From: a virus
IMG/VR virus record: IMGVR_UViG_3300027805_000011
Span: 3,017-67,016 of that record
DNA: 64,000 bases
Direction: 5' to 3' (one strand)
The position numbers were made by a program, and so were the translations under genes. The notes under the pieces were generated by a model that worked only from the letters and a program-made list of their open reading frames with translations, was not told the origin of the DNA and did no database searches. Within the stretch, counting starts at the first letter, position 1. Each line of letters starts with the position of its first letter. Of the stretch, positions 6,991 through 42,853 are shown piece after piece.

Positions 6991-7746
6991 ATGCTACTTG
7001 TCCTTCCCGTCAGCAAGGCCGACCTGAAGCTCGCCACCGCTCTGGCTGGCCATCTTGAGCTTTTGGGCGGGCTGGCGCGTCACAAGCTCCTTGTGGTCGG
7101 AACGATCCAGACCAAGGACGAGGCGGCGGCTCTGAAGGAGAGATTGGCCCCGCTTTTTGCCTCGGCCGACCTCTTTGTTCCGGATTCCGAGTGTGAACTC
7201 GGCTGGCCCCAAAGTGCCAATCACCTTTGGGCGCGGACGGTCCGCCACCTCCAGCACAGCGCGAATAAAGACATATGGTATTGGTTCGAGGCCGACAATA
7301 CCCCGATTCGGGAAGATTGGCTTGATGCGATCGAGACCGAATACAACCAGGCCCAAAAGCCGTTTCTGGGCGCGGTCCAGCCGACCCGGATGCTCGACCG
7401 CAAGACCCGCGAGTTCGTCAAAGTCGACGGCGAGCATGTCATCGGCACTTGTGTTTATCCGGCCGATTTCCACGGCCGCTCGCTGCTTTGGAGCTATGTC
7501 CGTCTCGATGACGGCCCGAATGTCGAACCCTTCGACGTGTATCTCCGCCACGAGATGCGTCCGAACACGGCGGTCTCCAAACTGATCCACAACAACTGGC
7601 GCACGAAGAACTACGAGATCGGACCGAAAGGTGAGATCTACTGCGACCCGATCGACGACCTCTCAGTCTACGGTCCCGTGCCCGCCGATGCCGCCGTCGT
7701 CCACGGATGTAAGGACGGCTCGCTTATAGAAGCCCTGCAAAAATGA
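6991..7746 (+). CDS. Putative GT-A-like glycosyltransferase or hypothetical enzyme
   Basis: WYWFEADNTPIREDWL resembles a DxD-like motif following a hydrophobic strand. ATG 6991 follows the TATAATAACCGCAC motif. Confidence 0.4.
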   Translation: MLLVLPVSKADLKLATALAGHLELLGGLARHKLLVVGTIQTKDEAAALKERLAPLFASADLFVPDSECELGWPQSANHLWARTVRHLQHSANKDIWYWFEADNTPIREDWLDAIETEYNQAQKPFLGAVQPTRMLDRKTREFVKVDGEHVIGTCVYPADFHGRSLLWSYVRLDDGPNVEPFDVYLRHEMRPNTAVSKLIHNNWRTKNYEIGPKGEIYCDPIDDLSVYGPVPADAAVVHGCKDGSLIEALQK

Positions 7747-10064
7747 CAAATTCCGAACTTGCTCCTCTCGAAATCCTCGGCCTCGACGAAAACGGCAAAG
7801 CGCCGAAGATGCGCGTCGACAACGTCAATTCGGCCCGTTCGATCTACAAAGCGATCAAAGACAGCGACCAAGGCTCCTCCAAGAACCGCGCCTTGGTCGA
7901 CGCCATGTTCAATGGCGCGGCTCCCTTCAATCAGCAGGATTTGATCGAAATGGGGCAGGGGGAACGAACCAACCTCGACTTCGGCGAAGCCGCTTCACTG
8001 AAAGAGCAAGCCCTCGCCGGATACTACGACCTGACCTCCTCGGTCGATGTCATGGCGCGGATCACCATCGACTACGGCTCGCCCGAGCAGCGCGTCGAGT
8101 GGGAGCGGGTCTTGGCCGAAGAATTTCACCGGACGCTCAAGGAGTGGCAGGAGTTTGAATTTAACCATCAAATGCTGGCCGATCAGTTCGTCTCGCACGG
8201 CGTCGGGGTCTGTTATTTCGAAGACGAAGTTGATTGGCGCTGGCGGGTCGCAGGCTTGTCCGAGTTCCGCATTCCGCGTGGAACACGGGCCTCCGAGTGG
8301 GAGATCGAGGTCGCCACGGTCGACCGCGAATACCAAGCGCATCAACTCTATAAATTCATTGAAGACCCGGCGGTGGCGAAGGATCTCGGGTGGAACGTCA
8401 AGATGGTCAAAGAGGCACTCATCCGTGCCTGCCGCGAGTCGACGTATCAAGAGGCCGGTGAGTGGGAGAAGCTCGAAGTCGAACTCAAAAACAACGACCT
8501 CCTCTACGGCAACAGCCGCGGGAAGAAGGTCCATGTCGTCCACATGTGGGTGCGCGAGTTCGACAAGAAAGTCAGCCACTTGATCTTCCTCAAAGACCCG
8601 ATCGGCTCGGACGAGAACGCCAAGGAAGAGGATTTCCTTTTCAAGAAGCCGAACCGCTTTGACGCCCCGACGAACTGCTTCGTTACCTTCTGCTACGGCG
8701 TCGGCAACGGGACCTACCACGGCATCCGCGGGCTTGGATACAAGGTGTATCCACACATCCAACTCCTCAATCGCCTCCGCTGTGGCATGGTCGACGGGGC
8801 TCTGCTTTCGAGCGCGTTGATCGTCCAGCCCGGCGACAACGGCTCCCGTGCGCTCGAAGATCTGACGTTGTCTTACTACGGCCCTTACGCGCTGTTCCCC
8901 CCAGGACTCAAAATCGTCGACAAGGCGATCCCGAATTATAATCAGAACCTCATTCCGGTCTTGAACGACCTGACGATGAATATGCAGAACCGCACCGTTG
9001 GCTATCAGTCGCGTGCGGTGACGCCGGATGGTCAGTCGCGGACGGCTTATGAGGTTCGCGCCCAGTTGCAGCAGGAAGCGGTGCTCGGTGCGGCGGCGAT
9101 CAATCTGTTTTACCACCCTTGGAAACGTCTCCTTCGTGAGGCATACAGGCGTTTAGTGTCGCGTGATTATGCCGCTAATGAGCCCGGCGGTCGCGAGGCG
9201 TTGGAGTTCAAGAAACGGTGCATGGCCCGTGGGGTTCCGGAGGAGGCGATCCATCGCTTCAATACGGTCGAGCCCGTCCGGGCGATCGGCTACGGCAGTC
9301 CCGGAATGCGGAGTGCGGCGATCGACGAGACGATGCAGATCTTCGGCAGCTTGGACGAGGCCGGTCGGATCAATCTTCTCCGCGACCGCATTGCCGCCCG
9401 TTTCGGTCAGGAAGTGGTCGACCGCTATCTGCCGTCGCCGTCCACGACACTTCGCACACCGATCGACGACAAGATCGCGCTCCTCGAAAACGCCACGATG
9501 ACCAGCGGCACCGGATTGCCGGTCTCCTCTGGCGAGAACCATTTCATTCACGCTTCACGTCACCTCACCGCGCTCGACGGACTCGACCAAGCGGTGTCTC
9601 AGGGTCAGGCCGAGCCGCAAAATGCGCTCCGCGCCTACCAGACCATGTTGCCGCACCTCGGAGAACACTTGCAGTTACTTGCTCCGGATGTGGCCCGTCA
9701 GGACCAGATCGCGCTCATGCGCCAGCGGTTCCAGCAACTCAATGCCTCGGGACAGCGTTTGGCCGACGAGCTTCAAGCCGCCGCCGAGCAGCAAGCCAAA
9801 GCCCAAGAGGCCGAGCAAGCCCGTGCGATCGAAGCCGAACGCGCCCGCATCGCCCAGATGGAGCAGCAGTTGGCCGAGGCTCAGATGCTTTCCCCGAAGG
9901 CGCAAGCCGACCTCGCCGAACGTCGGGCCAAACTTCAGATGCAGATCGAGAAACACCAGATCGACATGCAGACCAAGCAGGCCAAGGTCATGCAGGAGCT
10001 TGCGCTCAAAGACGCCAAAACCGCTGCCGAGATTGCCCCGGCTGCACAACCGATGATTCCGTGA
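7743..10064 (+). CDS. Portal protein
   Basis: 773 aa between terminase and head genes, with a Gln/Ala-rich C-terminal coiled coil as in P22-like portals. The call rests on size, position and architecture. Confidence 0.8.
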   Translation: MTNSELAPLEILGLDENGKAPKMRVDNVNSARSIYKAIKDSDQGSSKNRALVDAMFNGAAPFNQQDLIEMGQGERTNLDFGEAASLKEQALAGYYDLTSSVDVMARITIDYGSPEQRVEWERVLAEEFHRTLKEWQEFEFNHQMLADQFVSHGVGVCYFEDEVDWRWRVAGLSEFRIPRGTRASEWEIEVATVDREYQAHQLYKFIEDPAVAKDLGWNVKMVKEALIRACRESTYQEAGEWEKLEVELKNNDLLYGNSRGKKVHVVHMWVREFDKKVSHLIFLKDPIGSDENAKEEDFLFKKPNRFDAPTNCFVTFCYGVGNGTYHGIRGLGYKVYPHIQLLNRLRCGMVDGALLSSALIVQPGDNGSRALEDLTLSYYGPYALFPPGLKIVDKAIPNYNQNLIPVLNDLTMNMQNRTVGYQSRAVTPDGQSRTAYEVRAQLQQEAVLGAAAINLFYHPWKRLLREAYRRLVSRDYAANEPGGREALEFKKRCMARGVPEEAIHRFNTVEPVRAIGYGSPGMRSAAIDETMQIFGSLDEAGRINLLRDRIAARFGQEVVDRYLPSPSTTLRTPIDDKIALLENATMTSGTGLPVSSGENHFIHASRHLTALDGLDQAVSQGQAEPQNALRAYQTMLPHLGEHLQLLAPDVARQDQIALMRQRFQQLNASGQRLADELQAAAEQQAKAQEAEQARAIEAERARIAQMEQQLAEAQMLSPKAQADLAERRAKLQMQIEKHQIDMQTKQAKVMQELALKDAKTAAEIAPAAQPMIP

Positions 10065-18873: not shown

Positions 18874-21213
18874 GTGATCGCCGACACGGAGCGTCTCATT
18901 GACGGCTTCCGCGGTGTTCCTGCGGGCATGGACGGCTCCAAGGAGCCGCCACTGACACCGGGCGATGCCGTCTGGTATGCGACCAACGTCACCTTCCGCG
19001 GTGGCAACGGTCCGCGCACCCGTCCTGGGTTTCGCGAGATCCCTCCGACTTACTGGCGCAATCCGCAGCCAGTCAAAGAAGTGTCGTCGATAAGCATTGC
19101 AAGCGGCATTGCTACGGTCACCACGTCGGCCAACCACAACTACGACAACAAAGACAAAGTGACAGTGGCGGGGGCTACTCCGTCTGGGCTTAACGGAACG
19201 CACGTCGTCACGGTCACCGGATCTACGACATTCACGTTTCCGACTTCGGCGTCTGGTTCGGTATCCGGCACGATCACTTGTTTTCGCGACATTGATGCGA
19301 CTTACAACGAAGACTTCATCAATTCGACGACCAGCCGCGTGAGGTTTGCCAACGACATTCTCGGTGCGGTTTACGTGCAGGGTGCGACGGTCTACCAAGA
19401 CCCCCGAGAAGGCAACCCGTCACAGATGATTGTCGTAGTCGATGGCAAAATCATGGCGCTTAACTTCAACGATTTCTCATGCTATCGGCTCAATCTTTCC
19501 GACGAGATTGCTTCAGATGTGCCCGCTTACATGGTCCAAGCCGAAAAGTATCTTATCATCCAAACTGGGCAGAATGAACCTCGTGTCTACGACGGATATG
19601 CGGTCCGCAGGGCCAGTTACTATGGCGACGAAGTCGTGCCGATCGGAAAACAAATGGCTTATGGGCAAGGTCGTCTTTTCGTCGCGGTCAACGAAGGTGC
19701 CGAGATCATCGCGGGCGACTTGGTCTTTGGGGGTTCGGCAACCAATGTCGGTATCACCAGTTCCAGCGCGGCCAACCCGACCGTCATCACGACAGCCTTG
19801 GCACACGGTTTCACCAACGGGGACCAAGTGACAATCAGCGGGCACAGCGGAAGCCCGACGATCAATTCGACCTATGCCGTTTCCGGGGTGACCGCGACCA
19901 CGTTCACGATTCCTGTCTCCGTAACGACCGCTGGACGCGGCGGATTTGTCAGCCGATTCAACGCGGGGCAAGACAGCGACCTTTTGCGCTTCACGGAAAA
20001 CACCTTCCTCAACGAAGGCGGCAGCTTCGCACCGACTGGGAAAGTCGGTCGGGTTACGGGATTGGCCTTTCTTCCGGTGCAGGATACCTCGACTGGCCAA
20101 GGTGATCTGATTGCTTTCTGCGAACGCGGGGCTGTCACTTTTCAAGTCTCCGCGCCACGCGACCAGTGGAAAGATTTGCAGGGGTTTCAGCGTGTGCTTT
20201 TCGACAACATCGGCTCGACCAGCGAAAGCGTTATACCGATCAACGGCGATTTGTTTTTCCGGAGCCGCGAAGGCAATGGCATCCGAACTTACCGCAACGC
20301 CAGGGCCGAGGCCGACGGCTACGGTCAGACTCCGATCAGCGCGGAAATCGATCCGGTCCTCAAGCAGGACACGTCATGGATGCTCGACCAAGTGAGCTTT
20401 GCCAATTTCGACAACCGTCTCTTGATGACATGTCTGCCACGACAATTCCCTCGCCGCGCTCTGAACCAAGCCGAGGCTGATCAGTTTGCCGCCGAACCGA
20501 TCCCGACACTTTACAACGGTATTGCCGTTTTGGACTTCCAATCGGTCTCGACGGGGCGAGGTAAAGCGGCCGCTGTTTTTGATGGCGTCTGGACGGGTCT
20601 TCGCATCGTCAAGCTCGTGCAGGGCACATTCGACGGGGAGCCGCGCTGCTTTGCCGTGTGTTTCCATGAGGACGAGACCGCCCGCCGGATCGAGATCTGG
20701 GAGATCACCAAGAACGACGAGTTCGACACCCCGCAGGAAGGTCGCCGTCGCATCGAGGCTGGCATCGTGACACGGGCCTTTAATTTTGCGGATAGCCCCG
20801 GCGGCGGCAACATGACTTTGAAGAAGTTGGTTCGCTGCGATTTGTGGTTTGACGATCTTGGAGGTGGGCTTGATTTCCCTTTCACTTGCCAACTGGCCTA
20901 TCGGCCCGACGACTACCCGAACTTCACCACTTGGCAGAACTTTGAGCGGGCTTTCGAGACCGAATACAACATGACCTATGCCGCGCCTCCGAACGACACG
21001 GCCCCGATCGAGCCATACAACTACGAGCGCGGTTACGCCCCGCAGGTCCGGTTTCCCGCCCCGCCGCTGACCGCCAATATCGCAACCAATGTTCCGGCTT
21101 ACTTGGGACATGACTTTACGCTGCGGGTCAACTGGACAGGACGGGCCAGGCTCGGGCGGCTCATGCTGCACGGCTACAAGCTGGTCGAGGCAACCGGAGG
21201 AGGAACCCTGTAA
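18874..21213 (+). CDS. Tail tubular / DNA stabilisation protein (P22 gp10 or T7 gp12-like nozzle)
   Basis: 779 aa, GTG start, beta-rich, in the position expected after the capsid. It carries two inserted H-(N/G)-(Y/F) beta-modules. Confidence 0.65.
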   Translation: MIADTERLIDGFRGVPAGMDGSKEPPLTPGDAVWYATNVTFRGGNGPRTRPGFREIPPTYWRNPQPVKEVSSISIASGIATVTTSANHNYDNKDKVTVAGATPSGLNGTHVVTVTGSTTFTFPTSASGSVSGTITCFRDIDATYNEDFINSTTSRVRFANDILGAVYVQGATVYQDPREGNPSQMIVVVDGKIMALNFNDFSCYRLNLSDEIASDVPAYMVQAEKYLIIQTGQNEPRVYDGYAVRRASYYGDEVVPIGKQMAYGQGRLFVAVNEGAEIIAGDLVFGGSATNVGITSSSAANPTVITTALAHGFTNGDQVTISGHSGSPTINSTYAVSGVTATTFTIPVSVTTAGRGGFVSRFNAGQDSDLLRFTENTFLNEGGSFAPTGKVGRVTGLAFLPVQDTSTGQGDLIAFCERGAVTFQVSAPRDQWKDLQGFQRVLFDNIGSTSESVIPINGDLFFRSREGNGIRTYRNARAEADGYGQTPISAEIDPVLKQDTSWMLDQVSFANFDNRLLMTCLPRQFPRRALNQAEADQFAAEPIPTLYNGIAVLDFQSVSTGRGKAAAVFDGVWTGLRIVKLVQGTFDGEPRCFAVCFHEDETARRIEIWEITKNDEFDTPQEGRRRIEAGIVTRAFNFADSPGGGNMTLKKLVRCDLWFDDLGGGLDFPFTCQLAYRPDDYPNFTTWQNFERAFETEYNMTYAAPPNDTAPIEPYNYERGYAPQVRFPAPPLTANIATNVPAYLGHDFTLRVNWTGRARLGRLMLHGYKLVEATGGGTL

Positions 21214-23982: not shown

Positions 23983-24402
23983 ATGGCACTCATCCCAGGA
24001 ACACTCCCGACCGGAACCAAGTATCCCAACGACCCGCAGTCGTTGCTTGATACGTTTGCTTCTTATCTCACAGCACCCGAGGTCAAGAAGAACCGCCCGA
24101 CGGTGACCGAATACACCGCCGTCGACGGTGCGACGATCTCTGTGCGTCCAGACGGGTTGGATGAAACAATCTTCCTCAATCATACGACCACGGCGACTGC
24201 GGCCACTTTATTGTTCCCGACTAATGCGAACAGCGTGACGGGTCAGATTGTCCGGCTCTTTTCCCGTAGCGCCGTGACGACGCTCACGGTGACGACGCCG
24301 GGAAGCGTGGTCATCCGTGGCACTGCTTTGACTTCGCTGTCGGCCAACGGCTCGGCGGCTTGGCAAAAAGTCGCCACCGACACTTGGATTAGGCTCCAAT
24401 AA
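23983..24402 (+). CDS. Putative virion structural protein
   Basis: 139 aa, Thr-rich and beta-like, coupled to the next gene. Confidence 0.55.
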   Translation: MALIPGTLPTGTKYPNDPQSLLDTFASYLTAPEVKKNRPTVTEYTAVDGATISVRPDGLDETIFLNHTTTATAATLLFPTNANSVTGQIVRLFSRSAVTTLTVTTPGSVVIRGTALTSLSANGSAAWQKVATDTWIRLQ

Positions 24403-27053
24403 TGTCGACCTACCTACAAGCCCGCACCTTGCTCGCACCCTACGTCGACAATGGCGTGGCGGTGACCGACACGACGCGCATCGACCAGCGGATCGATGAG
24501 GCCCAGCGCCGTCTCATCGACCATTACAACTTCCTTTCCCGCCGTGAAGAAAGCGCCCGCACCCCGCTAGTGTGGCAGGCGGGCGGCACGACGGGCGTTG
24601 CTGCCACGGCTAGTCTCATCCTCCCCAATCTTGATGCAACCAAGAACATGATCTTGGCGCTGTGGCGTGAGGAGAATAACCAACTTGAACTGTCCAACGG
24701 TCTGGAGACCAAGGCGTATAGCTACATCGAGCGTAATATCACCAACGAGGTGGAGCGTGAACGCCGCACCGCCTACGAGTCGCTCACGGTCAACGGGCAG
24801 AATACCTTTGGCGGCATGGTCGGCCGGGTCGGTCTGGAGACCTTGATCCAATACCGGATGCCTGTCTCGCGCATCAAGAGCTTCGTCAACCGTGCCTACC
24901 AGCAGGCGATCGACCACCACAATTTCATCTCCCGCCGCGAGAATCTGGAGCGCAACACGATCACCTTCAATGCGCTGACGCTCGACATCGACGCCTTCGA
25001 CGCTTTGCTTCCCGACGAGGTGGTCCGCCTCCTGACTCTCTCGAACATCGTGACTGATGGGGGCGGCGATGGCACGGGGCTCAAACAGCAAGCCCTCGAA
25101 CTAATCGAGCGCAACATCACCTCGACCGTGGAGCGGGCTCGCCGGACCGCAGCCGGAACCGAGGGCCGTCTGCACAACGAACTGCCCAACGGTGTCGCCA
25201 TCCCTACGGCGCGACTGACTCAATTCCTCTCCCAAGCCGCGACTGAGGCGGGGGTGCATTACGACTTTCTCGCCCGCCGCGAAGACTATTCCTCCGGCGT
25301 GAAGCCCAATCCGTTTTCCTACGAAGTGCTCAAGTCGCTGGTCGAATCTTATTTTGCCACAGCCAATGGCTCAGTCGATGTCGCCTCGGCCAAGAAGGGT
25401 GAAGCCTTTCAGATTATCGAGCGCGACCTGATGCAGAACGTGGAGAACGCCCGCCGTCAAACCGCTGGTGAGGAGGGTCGTCTGCACAATGAATTGCCCG
25501 AGGGTGTTCGCGTCTCAACGGCCCGGCTGACCACGTATCTTTCCCAAGCGGCCAGTGACGCTTCGGTCCATTACGATTTCCTCGCCCGGCGGGAAGACTA
25601 TTCCGGCGGCGTCAAACCGAATCCGTTTTCTTTCGAGATCCGCAAAAAGCTCGTCGAGTCCTACATCGCCACAGCCAATGCGGGGATCGAAGCTGCGACG
25701 GTGCTCAAACAAGAGGCTTTTGCCGTTATCGAACGTGACCTCATGCGGGATGTGGAAGCCGCCCGTCGTGCCGCGGCAGGGGAAGAAGGCCGTCTGCACA
25801 ATGAACTTCCCGAGGGTGTGCGGATTTCCACCACCCGACTGACCCAATATCTAAGCCAAGCTGCCACTGAAGCGGGCGCTCACTGGGACTTCTTGGCCCG
25901 CCGTGAGAATTATTCCAGTGGAACCAAACCCAATCCTTTTACTTATGAAATCCGGAAAAAGTTCGTGGAGTCCTATGTCGCGTCCGGGGCTGGTCAAATC
26001 GAAGCCTCGGCGGCGCTCAAAGCCGAAGGCCAAGCGTTGATCGAACGCGATCTCATGGCCCAAGTCGAAGCGGTGCGGAGAGCGGCTGCGGGCGACGAGG
26101 GCAAGTTGCACAATGAACTGCCCAACGGCGTCACCATCCCGACACCGCGCCTGACGACTTTCTTGTCCCAAGCCTCGACCGAAATCGGGGCGCACCAAGC
26201 ATTCCTGCAACGGCGTGAGGATTACAATGGCGCGGCTCCGACGCCGACCTATGAGCAGCGCAAGCTCTTGGTCGAGGCATACCTTGCCACGGCGGCTGGT
26301 CAGCCGGATGTGGCTACGGCGCTCAAACAGCAAGCCTTGGCCATCGTCGAGCGCGATGTCATGCAGTCGATCGAGGCGGCGCGGCGGGCAACCCGTCAGG
26401 CGCTTGCCGCGACAGCCAGCGACACCTTCGGCTACCACTGGGGCCGGATCGGTCTGGAACTGCCGCAAGCCTACCAGCTTTCCGACAATGCCGTGCAGCG
26501 CCATGTCAACACGGCCGAGGAGCAACTGATGGCCGCTGGCAAGTGGGTCGGGACGGTCGCCGAGTATACCCTGACGGTGAACGCGACCGGCGAGTTCTTC
26601 CTGCCCCGCGAAGTTGAGACGATTCTTTTCATGTCCTTCGACGGCGATCCCAAGCCGGTCCATGACCGCTTGAACGAGTGGATCAAAGGCGGCACAGGCT
26701 ACCGCGAGACCGACGATGCTTGGCGGCAGGGGGCCGTGGACCGTGGAGAGGCGATCGACCCAGCCGACGGGTTCCTCAAGCGTAAATACTGGATCACCCT
26801 GCCGACCACCGTTCCGGTCGTCCGCATCCTGGGCAAACGCCGCTTCGTCCACCACACCAGCAACTCGGAGAAGATGTATCTCCGCAACTACCAAGCAATC
26901 TTTGAGGCGACCAAGGGTTTGATCTTGGGCGGTGACCAGATCACCCCGCATATCGACAAAGCCAAGGAGATGCTGGCTACCCAGATCGCCCAACAGAGTT
27001 TCCAAGGTAACCGCGGAGCCGCCCACACCCGTCGCGTTCTCATGTTTCGGTGA
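24402..27053 (+). CDS. Head-tail adaptor-like protein with 104-aa tandem repeats
   Basis: G(R/K)LHNELP recurs at 25164, 25476, 25788 and 26100 (exact 312-nt period), with three further degenerate units. The adaptor call is inferred from the last unit and from synteny. Confidence 0.55.
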   Translation: MSTYLQARTLLAPYVDNGVAVTDTTRIDQRIDEAQRRLIDHYNFLSRREESARTPLVWQAGGTTGVAATASLILPNLDATKNMILALWREENNQLELSNGLETKAYSYIERNITNEVERERRTAYESLTVNGQNTFGGMVGRVGLETLIQYRMPVSRIKSFVNRAYQQAIDHHNFISRRENLERNTITFNALTLDIDAFDALLPDEVVRLLTLSNIVTDGGGDGTGLKQQALELIERNITSTVERARRTAAGTEGRLHNELPNGVAIPTARLTQFLSQAATEAGVHYDFLARREDYSSGVKPNPFSYEVLKSLVESYFATANGSVDVASAKKGEAFQIIERDLMQNVENARRQTAGEEGRLHNELPEGVRVSTARLTTYLSQAASDASVHYDFLARREDYSGGVKPNPFSFEIRKKLVESYIATANAGIEAATVLKQEAFAVIERDLMRDVEAARRAAAGEEGRLHNELPEGVRISTTRLTQYLSQAATEAGAHWDFLARRENYSSGTKPNPFTYEIRKKFVESYVASGAGQIEASAALKAEGQALIERDLMAQVEAVRRAAAGDEGKLHNELPNGVTIPTPRLTTFLSQASTEIGAHQAFLQRREDYNGAAPTPTYEQRKLLVEAYLATAAGQPDVATALKQQALAIVERDVMQSIEAARRATRQALAATASDTFGYHWGRIGLELPQAYQLSDNAVQRHVNTAEEQLMAAGKWVGTVAEYTLTVNATGEFFLPREVETILFMSFDGDPKPVHDRLNEWIKGGTGYRETDDAWRQGAVDRGEAIDPADGFLKRKYWITLPTTVPVVRILGKRRFVHHTSNSEKMYLRNYQAIFEATKGLILGGDQITPHIDKAKEMLATQIAQQSFQGNRGAAHTRRVLMFR

Positions 27054-38000: not shown

Positions 38001-41000
38001 ACACCAATCCCGAGGGTCGGGCGCGGGCCACAGCCATCCGGGATATCCAGATGTCGCGTGCCGCCAAGTTTGCCGGACGTGCCACCCGGCAGCAGACGGC
38101 CCTAGGGGATGACGCCGTCTTCGATACAGGCGCTTACGCTCTCTACATCAACCTCGATGCGCCGCACCCTAACGGCAGTCCGGTTGGGACCGTTCTCCAT
38201 GAGTTCAACCATGTGGTGCTCGACGCCAAGATCGACGGTCTGATCGAGCTCAATCCGACCGAGCGTGCCGCGCTGGAGCGGCTGCGGGCCGAACGCCGTG
38301 CTGCGGTGATCGAAGCCGCCCGCCGCCTCGACATCGACTTGCCGTCCAACCCGTCAGAGGCCGAGATCGATTCGGCGTCACAACAGATTTACCAGTTGGC
38401 TGAGACCATCACGCCGGAGCAGCTTGACGCCCTAGGAATCGACAACGCTCGCGCTCTCGATGCCCTGACCAGCGACCGGGAATTCGCCAACGACATCATC
38501 AGCCGGCCCGACGTGGCCGATCTCCTGGTGAACCTGGGTCGCGGCAAAGCCGGGGGCAAGCCGACCACGCTCCTAGGAGCCATCCGCAAAGCCTGGGACG
38601 CCCTGGTTGAATTGATCTCTGGAGTCAAAGCCGACCCGAACTCGCCGCTGGCGCGGGCTTTCAAGGACAGTTGGACTTTGGTCTACGCCAGCAACGGGGC
38701 AGAAATGGACGACACGTCCTTCACCATGCCCGAGGTGATGCGCTCCGAGCTTGCCGCCGAGATGCAGACCCAAGCCGAGGTCAACGCTTTCATCGAGCGC
38801 GAGCTCGACCGCCGCAATCTGGCCGGAACCGCCGAAGAGCGAAACCGCTTGCTCTCCGAGTTCCGTAAGGAAACCGAACCAGAAGCCCCAGCCCAAGAAG
38901 AGGGGGCGACCGAAGAGGACACCGAGATCGACGAGGAAGAGCAGCTTCGTCTGGCCCGCCAGCGGGTGCTCCGCGCGATGGGTATGGAGGGCCGTGAAGA
39001 CGATCCGGAGGTGTCGGCGTTCGATCCGGATGTAGTCAGTCGCGCCGTCGAAGTCATGTCCGAAAACGAATTCGTGCAGTGGGCGCAGGCCAACGGATTC
39101 CAGTTCCTCGACCCGCGTGCCGTTTACCGGAACACGATTCTGGAGAAAGCGATCCGCGATGCAGGAAAGCCTCCCGTCCCAAAGCAGAAGCAAAAACAGG
39201 CCAAGGCCGAACCCAAGAAAGAGGACGACGACACCGATCCGCCGCCTCCGCCTCCGGGCGGCAAGCCTCCTAGGAAGCCGCCGACGCAAACACCGCCCGG
39301 AAAAAGCCAAGCTCCTCCGACGCCCGCGCCGCCTCCACAACGCAGAGACCGCGGGACTCTCGGCGTAACCCCGCTGACACCCAAAGCCCGCGCCAAAAAA
39401 CTTTTGGATTCGATCCCCGAGGAAAACCGCGGGCAGTTCAAAACTTCGAAAGGTGATGTCCAAGCCGGAACCCGCATCTACAAACGGTCACGGGCCAAGG
39501 ATGGTTCACTGAAAGAAACCCGGTCCGGAGAGGTAAGTCAGTCCGTGCATTTCGTGACGCGGGTCGTAGGCGACAAAGTCTTCACCCTGCCAGCAATCAC
39601 TTTCGATTCAGGTTCGCGATCGGCGCAGTGGAACGACCAGCAGGAATACTCACAAAAAGATTTCCAAGATCTCGTCAAGAAAGGCGACATCGAGGTCGAA
39701 ACCGACCCCGCCCTTCCCGTGGGAAGAAGCGTCTACTCGCCAGAAGAAGGCCGCATGATTTCTGTTATGCCCGCCGCAACGCAGATAGATCCTGACGCCA
39801 CGGCCGGTGCTGCACCCGTCAATGAAAACGCGCCCGATTTTGTTGATGTGCCGCCTAGCGAATCCCGCATCGAAGCCTTCCGTCCAAGAGTCATCGAGCC
39901 GGTGACCAAAAAGACCTACACCGGCGGCACCTACACGATGAAGGGTATCCTGCGTTCAGTCTTCGAGTATCTCGATCCTAGGGCAGGGGATATGTGGCTC
40001 AAGAGCCGGGCGGCGATCAAGGCCGAGGCCAGCCGGGTTGACGATTTGGCGGACATCCTCAAGAAGCAGCTTTCCGAGTTGAAGAAGCAAGGCCAGGAGT
40101 TCTCCTCAGACCTTCTCAACACCGCCCTAGGAAACCTGGAGAACCCGCTGACCACCGATCAGATCAGGGAAATCGAATCTCTTTCCGGTGGCCGGACGAC
40201 TTTCACCGGAGAAGACGGCGAGACTTACACGACCGATCCCGCAGGCGAACTGCGTGACGAGTATCTCCGCGCCAACCGCAACGCTTTCCGTGCCAAGCAA
40301 CGTCTGGCCCTCAAAGAGCTTCCGGAAAACGTGGCCAGCACCATCGCCGAGATGTCGGCGCACATCGAATCGCTTTCCAAGAAACTTCCGAAGGAAGGCA
40401 TTGTCCACGGCGACCTCAAGATCACGGTCGACGAAGCCCTAGGAATTTATCTCAACCGCAGTTACGCAATCTTCGACGATCCGAAGTGGGCGGACAAAGT
40501 GAAGAAGAACGCTCCGGTCATCGCCGCGGCCCGCCGCTATATCAAAAACCAACTGGTCAAAGACAAGGCGAGCGAACTCTTTTCCATCGCGCAGGAAAGC
40601 GGAAGCCCGATCTCCAAGGAGGAGGCTTTGCGGCGAGCCGGTGAGGTCGTCATCGATGACGATGTGGAAACAGCTTTGGAAAGCTACTTGTCGGTCGGGC
40701 TCGACGCGCCGTCGATCGGCATCCTTTCCGGACGCATCCCCGGACAAAAGAATCTTTCGATCCTCTACAACCGCAAAAACATTGCCCCTGAGATTCAAGC
40801 TCTGTGGGGGCGTTACGACGATCCGACGATCAACTACGCCAAGTCCGTCCTCAAGCTGGCCTCATTAGTCTCCAACCACCAGTTCCTCAAGGAGCTCCGC
40901 GCCGAAGGTCTCAAGGAAGGCTGGCTCTGGGATCCCAACTCAAACACCGAAAAGCCGGTTGGGTTCCAGCGCATCGCGAGCGAGAAGAACCGCTCTCTCG

Positions 41001-42853
41001 AACCGCTGGCTGGCATGTATGCCATGCCCGAGTTCCTCCGCGGTTTGGAGACGGTCTTCTCTCCCGACACGCTGGAATCGCACAACTACTTGATGCGCTA
41101 CTTGACCAAAGCCACAGGCATCACGATGGGTATGCAGACGGTCGGTTCCTACGCGGCACAGGTCCGCAACTACTTGGGCAACTTTCTCAAGCTGCTGGCG
41201 ACAGGGAATTTGGGACTGGGCGACATCGCCAATCCCGAATGGCGCAAAAATCTGGCCTTCGCGCACCGCGCCGCCATCGCCGATGTTTTCAAGAGCTACG
41301 GGAAACAGGACCGCAAATTCTGGCGCAACGAGATCGACAAGCTCATTCGGCTCGGGGTCTTCGGCGAGTCGATCACCACCAACCTGATCGACGACTTGGT
41401 CGGCTTGAGCAAAGCGGCGACCGACGGGCAGTTCGACAACAAGTTCAACCAGATCATCGGACGCCCCGCCATGCAGATTGCCAAGCTGGCGCAGGATACC
41501 TATGCGGCTGGCGACAACATCTTCAAGGCGATGATCTTCTTCTCGGAGCGGGCCAAATACGCCAAAGCCATGCCCGAGCTCGACAAGCAAAACGTCGACG
41601 CCGAACTGGGCATCACCGACCTCGACCGCAAGGCCGCGCAGATTTCCCGCGACATTCACTGGACCTACTCGCTGGCTCCGCAGATCGTGCAAGATCTCAA
41701 GCGCGGTCCGGGCGTGTTCATCGCGCCGTTCATCACCTTCACCACCGAAGTCATCCGCACGACGATCAACACTTTCAACCTCGCACGGCAGGAGATTCGC
41801 GACGGGCGGGCCAGCGGCAACCAAGACCTCGAAGCGATCGGTTGGGGGCGCATCCGCGGTCTTACCGCGGCAGCATTGCTGCCCTCGGCGGTCGGCGCTG
41901 GTATCGCGGCTATGTTCGGGAACGACGGCGAAGATGAAGAAAACCTGCGCCGCTTCCTGCCCGACTGGCAGAAGAACAACCAGTTGGTCATGCTCGGTAA
42001 CGAAAACGGGAAGATCAGCTTCATCGACATGTCTTTCCTCGACCCGCACGAGTATTTCAAAAAGCCGCTCAAAGCCTTCTGGCGTTCCCTTACCGACGAT
42101 GACGCCACCGCCACCGAACGGATCAGCGGGTCAGTCATCAGCGCGGTCGGTGAAATACTCAACCCGTTTACTAGCGAGCAGATCTTCGCCGGAGCTATCG
42201 CCGACGTGGCCCGCAACCGCGACGAGGCCGGACGCCAAGTCTGGAACCCGCAGGACACCGCCGCCCGCAAAGGTATGGCTGTGGCCAACCACATCTTCAT
42301 TCAACCGTTTATGCCCGGCACCGGACGAAGCCTCGGACGTATCGGAGCCGCGGCGCTCGGCTGGCAGGGAGACACAGGGCGGGCTTACAGCCTACCCAAT
42401 GAACTGGCCAGCATGTTCCTAGGACAGCGCATCAGCCAAGTGGACGTCAATCAGGCCCTAGGGTTCTCGGTCAACCGTTTCCTCCGCGGTCAGCGGGACG
42501 CCTCGACCTTATTCACAAGAGAGTTCACCAGTGAGGGAACCCGCTCCCCCGCTGGGATTGTGTCGTCCTATGACCGGGCCAATGAAGCTCACCTCTCCCT
42601 GGTCTCGCAGATGCGGAAAGACTACAAAGCGGCCCTAGGGCTGGGCGGCATGACCGTGGACTCGACCCGCCGGAAGATGAAAGAGGCCGGCATGGGTAAG
42701 GAGAGTATCAAAGAAGTAACCACCGGCATCTTCACGCCCTACCAAGCCAGCAAAGAAATGGTCGATAGCGTCCGCCGCCGCGGTCTCAACGACCGGATCA
42801 ACGCCTACGAACAGGCTCGCGACATGGTCCCGCAGCGAGAAGTCCTGCAATAA
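32006..42853 (+). CDS. Giant internal virion protein (large polyvalent-type) with zincin HExxH motif
   Basis: 3615 aa. Gly-rich membrane-like helices at about 32.3-33.3 kb, VLHEFNH at 38198-38212, Pro-rich linker at about 39230-39340, LPD38-like C-terminus (inferred). Confidence 0.7.
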   Translation: MAIRDTINLLTEDEPLELLDTFRSRRESFDEPATLDLASDPEAEAQDFADMPQEPVEMPPDETERAERRRQAMDEFYSDPTNIEGLQENDDELPGEGVGLARFRPSAGEEYGIGLRRGGKQLQGLAGGFIGLVSDALGIEAGADWGLEQYRSAMEEAAESEAFITDPFEQIDGIGDAGLYAAGLLGEQTYQLMSSVLGAGIGYGVGRSIANRVIANEIGKRTAAGLTKEAAEKAVRDEVTENALRVASIPVSEKGFSKGGAITGAYLTNFGMISGGTYGQIEEETGLRDPGTAAAFSAGGAALDTLGEVFLASKFLKPFSRGVEAKPGISLPAKPRTVGGVARSAGLGALTGGAVEGGVEGAQTGIEQAAVGAADPDQTIGERLAAPGASRERAIAAAAGFTVGGALGGPGGVLEALAPKTAQKIRDKGTQENQEQEQPAPSELPGDWSETITVGGLPMRYSEAIDQWAVVNPPENFPNTTNLADGTRVYLVPERTSSGQALSQAARARLSALRGENVEGIEDFTEDEQQEEEGEETELTPFSANTPVLFKPFDGDTQLKAIVRGYDADGNAEIDVFDPENVLGAPEGKARTNLAPWWSEKSGLTQPERTQPENVGEIETARGGLSIGPRIVARREVVSKDQLGRLALDAEAQLTDEQRQRQETLKAELLARRAKPGLDVSDDESSVDAEQEQIDEAQQRDRGESEAFINSLDPGTPVSVIRFNPEGRTTLGRNDGQRFEDAFFLRRLSNGNALFQLRPVRRADQRTSEVPPKGGSREQLEPGVEFQGASPRKEFVAERTANMIELKPSEFNLVTFRGLPTSRPANPIDDQINDIVAALGGNPSGQELAAALGTIYEGPGFPTRSFFRDGVATGNNPGIGIRWRNKRDGSPEKVGQSYGIFGLRWMGEEGTAGRPEKVEMPQIPRKQRQGEDRAAAAERYGREMGTYKNTLDGLALNTLRQMDRGLVVEVEGGFEVERMLRDPLRTFELEQIPDTRRATYQEPSKSGRSTVTRTRPRRFRVTAVRWRGNIARQGKNPLDFSISAALDPLSPEAESRARQQLKETGETDYRPSQVAGTQRGLGILKDIYRFDLRRREQSETAQGTSQTSLTRLLQQSRMTDAQLREAGKTREQVEKELADLGTAIVERPDVGIGKLREFAQRTQSGRYEFVATSEARLRAIELSGGREPNKAQLDRAIDETLAAENLTRDEVITALTEFDKSVEFLASLDPDARNVVEKLLTDVDNYVNASRQVPTRTPGTARADILDLALVRAKNTRLRDIRMAIERAKKKGGRPIQNLSVRDRGNIMRLYLEALDEIRAERADKRVQAEETKIYGGTRGRSDQIQQLLAEAREAGIQDAATILDRKTPIDKARRLIAEARRGMRRTERSVAPGAGQAQRLMRDIENVVERGGVSGVPDAKSVFERMEALVESGAIPQAKKDLVRTNLLNETQANLEKDFKEAKARVIKKLENDQSRYRDEPARDVFPREKTSKSGKSIAAKRVPARRVLTVPTAQIRAEYDYLENIPKVFGDLLKKNPFFTVVDAVRSAARSLESQQRLGRAESMPQGEPAPAQSQQELLEETNRPDRFGMDAPNFARREYWRRVEDLDNVFGNGARALLFRGFGLTESGKRAVTQGKANQFYRAFLEMTETGKLSPKTLRRWSARKNFPAGDRARFIRILDYLIDPNQYGRRTAQPAARAVGASTQPLTVAQPGVAGDPRTQRGVAPRPDSGPITRGLSAEQLMAGTGESRPEGSARQDGVGGPVGAGGTAASGPGTVRDGAAGGVRGPGIRVASQPRTIRTLSRAATRRLVGLAGRSAGLTDAELAAIPDEEIRRAYVALMTTADQTATLAGRNAIGQSPVPMAERFTQTGEQLLTAAAKENADYMANKQRVDRLRQNIGLALRARAFGNPSEFFKAVAADNQQPANLRMLAKEFLKLQGRGLDIDGVALQVGAFGRNFNSDPITEKEIKSKIRLKDGVYTVSTSAGKVTHSGTPDTNPEGRARATAIRDIQMSRAAKFAGRATRQQTALGDDAVFDTGAYALYINLDAPHPNGSPVGTVLHEFNHVVLDAKIDGLIELNPTERAALERLRAERRAAVIEAARRLDIDLPSNPSEAEIDSASQQIYQLAETITPEQLDALGIDNARALDALTSDREFANDIISRPDVADLLVNLGRGKAGGKPTTLLGAIRKAWDALVELISGVKADPNSPLARAFKDSWTLVYASNGAEMDDTSFTMPEVMRSELAAEMQTQAEVNAFIERELDRRNLAGTAEERNRLLSEFRKETEPEAPAQEEGATEEDTEIDEEEQLRLARQRVLRAMGMEGREDDPEVSAFDPDVVSRAVEVMSENEFVQWAQANGFQFLDPRAVYRNTILEKAIRDAGKPPVPKQKQKQAKAEPKKEDDDTDPPPPPPGGKPPRKPPTQTPPGKSQAPPTPAPPPQRRDRGTLGVTPLTPKARAKKLLDSIPEENRGQFKTSKGDVQAGTRIYKRSRAKDGSLKETRSGEVSQSVHFVTRVVGDKVFTLPAITFDSGSRSAQWNDQQEYSQKDFQDLVKKGDIEVETDPALPVGRSVYSPEEGRMISVMPAATQIDPDATAGAAPVNENAPDFVDVPPSESRIEAFRPRVIEPVTKKTYTGGTYTMKGILRSVFEYLDPRAGDMWLKSRAAIKAEASRVDDLADILKKQLSELKKQGQEFSSDLLNTALGNLENPLTTDQIREIESLSGGRTTFTGEDGETYTTDPAGELRDEYLRANRNAFRAKQRLALKELPENVASTIAEMSAHIESLSKKLPKEGIVHGDLKITVDEALGIYLNRSYAIFDDPKWADKVKKNAPVIAAARRYIKNQLVKDKASELFSIAQESGSPISKEEALRRAGEVVIDDDVETALESYLSVGLDAPSIGILSGRIPGQKNLSILYNRKNIAPEIQALWGRYDDPTINYAKSVLKLASLVSNHQFLKELRAEGLKEGWLWDPNSNTEKPVGFQRIASEKNRSLEPLAGMYAMPEFLRGLETVFSPDTLESHNYLMRYLTKATGITMGMQTVGSYAAQVRNYLGNFLKLLATGNLGLGDIANPEWRKNLAFAHRAAIADVFKSYGKQDRKFWRNEIDKLIRLGVFGESITTNLIDDLVGLSKAATDGQFDNKFNQIIGRPAMQIAKLAQDTYAAGDNIFKAMIFFSERAKYAKAMPELDKQNVDAELGITDLDRKAAQISRDIHWTYSLAPQIVQDLKRGPGVFIAPFITFTTEVIRTTINTFNLARQEIRDGRASGNQDLEAIGWGRIRGLTAAALLPSAVGAGIAAMFGNDGEDEENLRRFLPDWQKNNQLVMLGNENGKISFIDMSFLDPHEYFKKPLKAFWRSLTDDDATATERISGSVISAVGEILNPFTSEQIFAGAIADVARNRDEAGRQVWNPQDTAARKGMAVANHIFIQPFMPGTGRSLGRIGAAALGWQGDTGRAYSLPNELASMFLGQRISQVDVNQALGFSVNRFLRGQRDASTLFTREFTSEGTRSPAGIVSSYDRANEAHLSLVSQMRKDYKAALGLGGMTVDSTRRKMKEAGMGKESIKEVTTGIFTPYQASKEMVDSVRRRGLNDRINAYEQARDMVPQREVLQ
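37077..37475 (+). CDS. Candidate nested (overprinted) acidic protein in an alternative frame of the giant gene
   Basis: 132 aa, with an AT-rich start context and a protein-like Leu/Glu/Asp pattern. The host frame becomes Gly/Arg/Ala-rich low complexity over this span. Confidence 0.5.
   Translation: MDAEQPNQRPAQSEPQRNPSPSPNRESQEILGPNGESPLDPIVAPLLAAYLLNNSWPELASRVPKDLLDRMGSGDQLALGELLQADPELFETEPLEAFEDLAFESLLNPERSELSPEQLPDDSSDSPDEVPV

Follow-up and report, generated by a model that had tools for sequence, protein, structure and literature searches.

Head-to-tail adaptors of phages are usually seen as small couplers that form a single ring. The locus described here raises the question of what a phage could do with an adaptor in which the same helical element recurs again and again within one gene. 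The gene lies at 24402..27053 (+) in the window, a stretch of 64,000 nucleotides that makes up most of a complete IMG/VR virus record (IMGVR_UViG_3300027805_000011; 71,476 bp, or 71.5 kb). Its open reading frame (ORF) is open and intact, and its start matches that of every orthologue, the N-terminus of the orthologues being M(S/A)TYL. From the translation, the product is an expanded head-to-tail adaptor of 883 amino acids (aa), here called P0001, made up of two degenerate units, four units of 104 aa and a C-terminal module, with seven helical cores in all. Our results strongly support the view that P0001 is the head-to-tail adaptor of this phage, and that its six upstream units are copies of the adaptor's own three-helix core.

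The first line of evidence comes from the C-terminal module (aa 671-883; 26412..27050, +), which Foldseek and VIA-align both identify as a complete adaptor of the T7 gp11/SU10 gp11 type. The AlphaFold model of the whole protein, with a mean predicted local distance difference test (pLDDT) score of 86, contains six helical units, a helix/beta/helix module and a low-confidence tail. In VIA-align, residues 663-883 matched the SU10 adaptor (7z47_A) with a Z score of 11.3, 197 of 227 residues being aligned at a root-mean-square deviation (rmsd) of 5.4, and after SU10 twelve more podovirus adaptors match the module. Further Z scores were 10.1 for A4, 9.8 for Pa223, 9.3 for GP4, 9.2 for Moo19, 7.6 for N4, 7.2 for DEV and 5.5-5.8 for T7 gp11, and KHP30 and VP1 also match. 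Foldseek gave an E value of 1e-4 and a probability of 1.00 for the module, and both programs also matched residues 670-876 with the ring proteins of the crAss-like phage PhicrAss001 (Z 6.1-6.6 for the module against 7qoj_E, 7qoi_FS and 7qog_B). The adaptors of this type (T7 gp11 and SU10 gp11, also GP4, A4, Pa223, VP1, KHP30, N4 gp67 and DEV gp83), which are 190-245 aa long, are aligned over nearly their whole length, and the C-terminal 213-221 residues of P0001 share three parts with them: a helix bundle, a beta-sandwich and an extended C-terminal tail, in an order that reproduces the adaptor set. The beta-sandwich (aa 714-815; 26541..26846, +) was delimited with a profile hidden Markov model (HMM) and the AlphaFold strands at 719-813, where the first-pass annotation, made from the sequence alone, had already seen the last unit run into a beta-rich region. 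It sits at the "fibre dock" position; the equivalent domain of SU10 and T7 holds the long tail fibres (PMC9509320). The C-terminal tail (aa 868-883; 27003..27050, +), recognized by residue conservation, takes the place of the adaptors' portal-embracing loop, whose role has been described for SU10 (PMC9509320). Its pLDDT is below 50 at 869-883, yet G872, A874, H875, R877, R878 and R883 vary little or not at all. By its predicted fold, it is strongly supported that residues 663-883 form a complete podovirus head-to-tail adaptor.

P0001 has no match in Pfam (E 0.01), in the PHROGs or among PDB sequences, and the helix-only adaptor families PF11650 and PF05135 likewise do not match it (E 0.01). 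Even at E 1, the family PF17212 "Tube" has no match anywhere in the genome; the relation of P0001 to the adaptors is at the level of fold only. Neither P0001 nor its C-terminal module had a tblastn match in 50,697 phage records, no match was obtained in GTDB genomes, and ten remote family members received no annotation from Pfam or PHROGs. The closest cultured TerL is only 22-24% identical. The gene is nevertheless where an adaptor gene would be expected, in a virion block with TerL, portal-like, fibre (including a Collar domain) and ejection-protein-like genes, as the genes of T7/SU10-type adaptors lie in a virion module. A second adaptor-like gene was not found, the module, beta-sandwich and unit HMMs matching only P0001 in any frame of the whole genome. 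P0001 is an adaptor by fold and position that stands outside every curated sequence family.

In front of this module lies the repeat array. Direct repeats are spaced exactly 312 nt apart at 25090/25402/25714, and a further one leads from 25184 to 26120, which is 3 x 312. With a DNA identity between copies of only 62-70%, they escape Tandem Repeats Finder. An HMM built from the four regular units and searched against all frames of the genome found these four strongly, from residues 255, 359, 463 and 567 (E 1e-51 to 1e-59), and recovered the degenerate ones at 16-124 (E 4e-5) and 152-254 (E 6e-8), which carry the boxes HYNFLSRRE at residue 41 and HHNFISRRE at residue 172. The layout that the first-pass annotation had proposed, with four units of exact 312-nt period behind two degenerate N-terminal ones, is confirmed. 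Its view of an old amplification that has been maintained also holds: the regular units are 59-70% identical in amino acids, and between them nonsynonymous divergence (dN) is 0.23-0.38 while synonymous divergence (dS) is saturated at 1.4 or more, giving a dN/dS of 0.10-0.27. The units are old and have been kept by purifying selection.

The six units are not interchangeable. Unit 1 (aa 1-130; 24402..24791, +; unit HMM E 4e-5) is degenerate and helical and bears, besides the HYNFLSRRE box, a family-wide N-terminal motif (..AR..LAPYVDNGV..D..RI..RI.EAQRRL) that is also found at the N-terminus of single-module relatives. It has a short loop (aa 49-76) in place of the beta-sandwich, its invariant residues are concentrated at 12-50 and 72-121, and residues 1-120 match the helical bundles of Sf6 gp7, P22 gp4 and the T4 neck with Z 5.2-6.2. 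Unit 2 (aa 131-254; 24792..25163, +; E 6e-8), also degenerate and helical, begins with TFGG.VGRVGLE, as the C-terminal module does, and has the HHNFISRRE box. The four tandem units were typed with a tree of units, which resolves first, middle, penultimate and last positional types. Unit 3 (aa 255-358, 104 aa; 25164..25475, +; unit HMM 195 bits) groups with the first units of the orthologues. Unit 4 (aa 359-462; 25476..25787, +; 195 bits) is of the middle type; it has no counterpart in P0037, the nearest relative, which has three units, and is sister to unit 2 of the homologue P0018. Unit 5 (aa 463-566; 25788..26099, +; 192 bits) falls in the clade of penultimate units, and unit 6 (aa 567-670; 26100..26411, +; 167 bits) in that of the last-type units, a single clade with 100% support. 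Unit 6 has a loop five residues shorter and a longer final helix (635-669) that continues into the adaptor module.

The tandem units are predicted to consist of three helices and no beta-sandwich, and several results tie them to the helical core of the adaptor. A model of units 5-6 alone (pLDDT 96.2; predicted template modelling score, pTM, 0.81) was searched with VIA-align, independently of Foldseek, against all 48,161 PDB representatives and had phage adaptor and neck proteins as most of its top 25 matches, each top match of this kind covering one unit and bridging the target's own beta domain. The Z scores were 9.3 for Pa223 (rmsd 2.4), 9.2 for VP1, 8.1 for SU10, 8.1 for GP4, 7.7 for the Mu neck protein (82 residues), 7.2 for the P74-26 neck protein and 6.8 for the JBD30 connector; taken singly, values of 7-9 are nothing unusual for helical bundles, and the weight lies in which proteins top the list and in the sequence links described below. 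Foldseek gave no significant match with the same model. Used as a BLAST query, the opening 60 residues of the C-terminal module matched the starts of upstream units within the same protein: module residues 674-728 against 134-191 in P0001 (E 2e-5), four places in a protein of the distant clade L064 (E 7e-10 to 1e-6), and two in one of L048 (E 5e-8 and 3e-6). The comparison of the unit profile with the module profile by hhalign is weak (E 0.007), and the within-protein BLAST matches of the sister clades are clearer. The comparison with gp4 and gp11 folds that the first-pass annotation had called for gave Z 5.5-5.8 for T7 gp11 with the C-terminal module and Z 5.2-6.0 for P22 gp4/Sf6 gp7 with unit 1, and the adaptor-like identity that it had assigned is borne out at two levels, residues 663-883 matching whole adaptors and the units the adaptor/neck helical core.

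Set against the known adaptors, P0001 is peculiar in its length. Those of the T7/SU10 type have a single module of about 190-250 residues, whereas P0001 is about four times longer, with six extra helical cores in front; it has no sequence-level match to them, and the number of its cores varies among close relatives. The best analogues of a single P0001 unit are the helix-only ring subunits of neck adaptors such as P22 gp4, Sf6 gp7 and those of the Mu and HK97 type. However, these are single-domain proteins with a portal-binding tail of their own and no tandem repetition, and they too have no sequence match to P0001. We found no published adaptor with tandem repeats in the literature.

The number of units, which the first-pass annotation had suggested following in orthologues, ranges from two to seven. 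The lengths of 143 metagenomic homologues form classes in steps of 104 residues, so that proteins of about 675, 779, 883, 987, 1092 and 1196 aa have 2, 3, 4, 5, 6 and 7 tandem units, respectively. On a tree of the non-repeat flanks of 95 distinct proteins, parsimony requires at least 31 changes in copy number, always by whole units, and by our count 14 of these fall within clades with a Shimodaira-Hasegawa-like approximate likelihood ratio (SH-aLRT) support of at least 95. In the unit tree, the insertions and deletions likewise appear as whole units of a defined positional type, and the unit that P0001 has and its nearest relative lacks is precisely the second tandem one. Assembly collapse is an unlikely source of this variation because units within a protein are only 62-76% identical in DNA, and one 3-unit protein occurs in identical form on more than 24 contigs. 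A 1223-aa homologue (L028:10001-13672, on a 72,313-bp IMG/VR contig) has a pair of neighbouring units with 96% amino-acid and 91% DNA identity; judged by this similarity, the pair arose by duplication recently, in contrast to the old units of P0001.

More distant relatives have arranged the same parts in other ways. Proteins of one sister clade (565-574 aa) have a full adaptor-like module with a beta-sandwich at the N-terminus, one helical unit and a C-terminal module. In a 993-aa protein of 25% identity (L064:9998-12979), four units of about 133 aa lie between two full adaptor-like modules, and in this array the same core has been amplified independently. Among 1.8 billion representatives, a profile search returned 216 family members of 193-1585 aa, ranging from a single module to many; the single-module members are 190-350 aa long, that is, of ordinary adaptor size. 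In BFVD, adaptor-fold proteins of 761-1308 aa are found from uncultured phages. Sequencing runs that contain 24-39% of the gene's words come from freshwater, wetland, lagoon, wastewater and landfill, a habitat lead from word matching only, by which the phage would be an uncultured one of freshwater type.

What, then, could the repeated cores build? Since the three helices of a unit are long and odd in number, the chain enters a unit at one pole and exits at the other, and successive units are laid end to end as a rod. The reading that we favour, though we would put it at somewhat less than an even chance, is that the tandem cores form extra dodecameric rings stacked under the portal-bound ring. 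Stacked rings were one of the two arrangements that the first-pass annotation had proposed. By homology, the C-terminal module would form a 12-membered ring on the portal; the cores of the twelve chains would then pack side by side as further dodecameric rings below it, which would amount to the multi-ring tail barrel of PhicrAss001 realized within one chain. A portal-binding tail would be needed only on the last module, and the free N-terminal motif, kept only on the first, would by analogy bind the next tail part. Barrel length would follow from the number of units, at roughly 4-4.6 nm per unit, and the phage lineage may use the gain and loss of units to change its reach through host surface layers. 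More tentatively still, we suggest a tail barrel made of one polypeptide species, in which twelve chains would run through 5-10 stacked rings, with a length set by repeat number and reset by unit-precise recombination: a fast-evolving ruler that may have arisen independently in at least three lineages.

Several observations speak for stacked rings. The pole-to-pole course of the chain in each unit gives the topology needed for threading successive rings. The constraint on the units exceeds what would be expected of a free spacer, since 33 of 104 positions are conserved at 90% or more over 409 distinct units (21 of the 33 being polar or charged) and the unit length is fixed. The N-terminal motif, present only on the first unit, and the conserved tail, present only on the last module, would fit a distal ring that binds a tail part and a proximal ring that binds the portal. 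The second full module at the N-terminus in sister clades argues in the same direction, as does the existence of a five-ring barrel of the same fold in PhicrAss001, functionally the closest known system. In that phage, the barrel of about 23 nm consists of five stacked dodecameric rings of paralogous adaptor-fold proteins, a single protein supplies two of these, and the muzzle is bound through N-terminal residues 15-26 of the distal ring (PMC10172136). Its ring proteins R1-R5 (gp43, gp40, gp35 and gp34) have the adaptor fold with three conserved helices and recur along the axis of the tail, which they lengthen (PMC10172136). Chains 7qoj_D/E/F, 7qoi and 7qog match the adaptor module of P0001. 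The number of rings differs between related crAss-like phages, and the authors suggest a tuning of reach through the capsule (PMC10172136). The two systems also differ: PhicrAss001 has separate ring genes whose products each have a beta-sandwich and are 15-31% identical, and their stacking has been solved, whereas the modules of P0001 are fused in one ORF, the inner ones have no beta-sandwich and are 59-70% identical, insertions and deletions are of whole units, and stacking is what we propose from these features.

Other considerations weigh against the stacked rings, besides the ordinariness of the unit-level Z scores noted above. The packing into rings and the lateral contact of units are things that we infer, and so are the location and stoichiometry of the protein in the virion. 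All five crAss001 rings keep the beta-sandwich that the tandem units lack. In sister pairs, copy number has no consistent counterpart in the length of any neighbouring tail gene, although the growth of a barrel by 20 nm might be expected to call for some compensation by the fibres. For the nozzle gene there is a candidate only. Across loci, the number of units correlates with the length of the proximal fibre gene (Spearman 0.52) and of the downstream membrane protein (0.42), both values being uncorrected for relatedness. The two informative sister pairs run in opposite ways, the membrane protein having 637 aa with 4 units against 550-580 aa with 3 units in one pair and 612 aa with 4 units against 649 aa with 3 in the other, and covariation with neighbour length was dropped as evidence. 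A complex prediction for units 5-6 in four copies, made from an alignment of 102 rows, scored 0.00, to which we give no weight either way. P22 gp4 stays a monomer before it contacts the portal, and isolated units may likewise not associate.

The strongest rival, which we regard as possible but less probable than the stacked rings, is that the six cores project from the portal-bound ring as twelve external arms. These semi-rigid, spectrin-like rods, perhaps paired or covered by a partner, would hold fibres or appendages at a distance set by the repeats, with the nozzle on the C-terminal module as in T7 and SU10. Over both of its units, the elongated two-unit model aligns with spectrin repeats 16-17 (172 residues, Z 5.6, rmsd 8.9). 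Spectrin repeats of three helices and about 106 aa are similar to the P0001 units in size and form an end-to-end rod; the fit is weak and there is no sequence relation, so that the likeness is one of geometry only. Quick change of copy number by whole units is typical of surface stalks, and the failure of any neighbouring gene to change in step with copy number is easier to understand for arms than for a barrel. In SU10, the N-termini of fibres lie on the helix bundle of the adaptor (PMC9509320), and extra bundles could therefore be extra docking surface. The phage does encode many fibre-like proteins with short conserved N-terminal anchors, and four genes (2991, 3169, 4149 and 10275, all +) share an N-terminal module of about 30 residues, MPxY(Y/F)PE..T...D..ER...K. 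However, such genes number 1-4 per genome independently of the number of units, and a scheme with one docking module per unit was rejected for this reason. Free spacers, moreover, seldom keep one-third of their positions, mostly polar ones, near-invariant at saturated dS, or an exact unit length. Arms would also leave the N-terminal motif of single-module proteins at the far end of the array, which would be odd if the nozzle binds the proximal module.

A third reading, which we consider improbable, takes P0001 for an accessory neck, collar or distal-ring protein, the true adaptor being encoded by another, too divergent gene. Several small structural genes of the phage have no assigned function, profiles may miss a very divergent adaptor, and in crAss-like phages there can be as many as four genes of the adaptor fold (PMC10172136). 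On the other side, no other ORF in any frame matches the module, beta-sandwich or unit profiles or PF17212, all the domains of an adaptor are present in P0001, among them a conserved tail at the place of the portal-embracing loop, and members of the family range in size down to proteins of 190-350 aa with a single module. Least probable by far is the idea, raised in the first-pass annotation, that one chain supplies several neighbouring subunits of a single 12-position ring: the units do share a ring-forming fold, but close relatives have 5, 6, 7, 8, 9 or 10 modules per chain, of which only 6 divides 12, and three long helices would put the next unit above or below rather than beside.

The neighbouring genes offer candidate partners for the adaptor. 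Directly upstream, a gene for a beta-rich protein of 139 aa (23983..24402, +) overlaps the start of P0001 with its stop by one base (TAATG). Its orthologues (137-146 aa) are present in every locus of the clade, whereas in the distant clades L048 and L064 only the first 30 aa are conserved and the rest differs (226-274 aa). From its sequence, this pattern could be that of an anchored fibre or hub protein, possibly a partner of the adaptor. A 773-aa portal-like protein (7743-10064, +) was recognized from its language-model neighbours, which are clusters of SU10/P22-type portals; it ends in a long helical stretch rich in Ala, Gln and Glu, as P22-type portal barrels do. It has no match in Pfam, the PHROGs or PDB sequences, and the assignment is by language-model similarity only. 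The candidate for the nozzle or tail hub is a conserved protein of 779 aa (18874-21213, +), 75-81% identical in the clade and carrying an immunoglobulin-like insert (weak E1_FCCH match); relatives of 918-952 aa have a further insert close to the C-terminal end. Among the language-model neighbours of the 779-aa protein are clusters with the P22 gp10 "Phage_stabilise" and T5 pb9 domains, which is a lead from the language model only, no profile matching it as a nozzle.

Downstream of P0001 come a 164-aa fibre-like gene and the genes for proteins of 603, 860 and 3615 aa, the last a giant. The 603-aa protein (27566-29377, +; orthologues 499-801 aa) has a hydrophobic start and a run of seven glycines followed by a region rich in Ala, Gln and Gly, and the 860-aa protein (29381-31963, +) is highly charged and of low complexity; together with the giant ORF, they look like a set of ejection proteins. 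The 3615-aa ORF (32006-42853, +) has PHROG 22602 "virion structural protein" as its sole match and none in Pfam, while its orthologues (3533-4522 aa) contain ART-PolyVal, Kinase-PolyVal (faint) or LPD37 domains; the ORF thus resembles a polyvalent protein of giant size that would be ejected. An N4-like reading of this ORF and of the gene order was considered and rejected, there being no RNA-polymerase match and the orthologues having polyvalent-protein domains. In N4 and DEV, the adaptor gene lies beside the terminase gene (PMC13434306, PMC10925440).

We think that these findings bear on how the tails of podoviruses can be lengthened. To our knowledge, the separate ring genes of crAss-like phages are the sole known way of doing so with this fold. 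In P0001 and its relatives, the adaptor fold is repeated inside one gene, and the copy number shifts often and cleanly between near-identical phages. If the rings stack, this would be a simple genetic dial for tail length, and the natural series of two to seven units would offer a chance to relate the reach of the tail to the surface layers of the host. If the cores form arms instead, they would represent a new kind of length-adjustable scaffold at the neck. Either way, P0001 belongs to a large, unannotated adaptor family of 216 cluster representatives, of which those tested have no Pfam or PHROG name, and whose recognition should improve the annotation of environmental phages.

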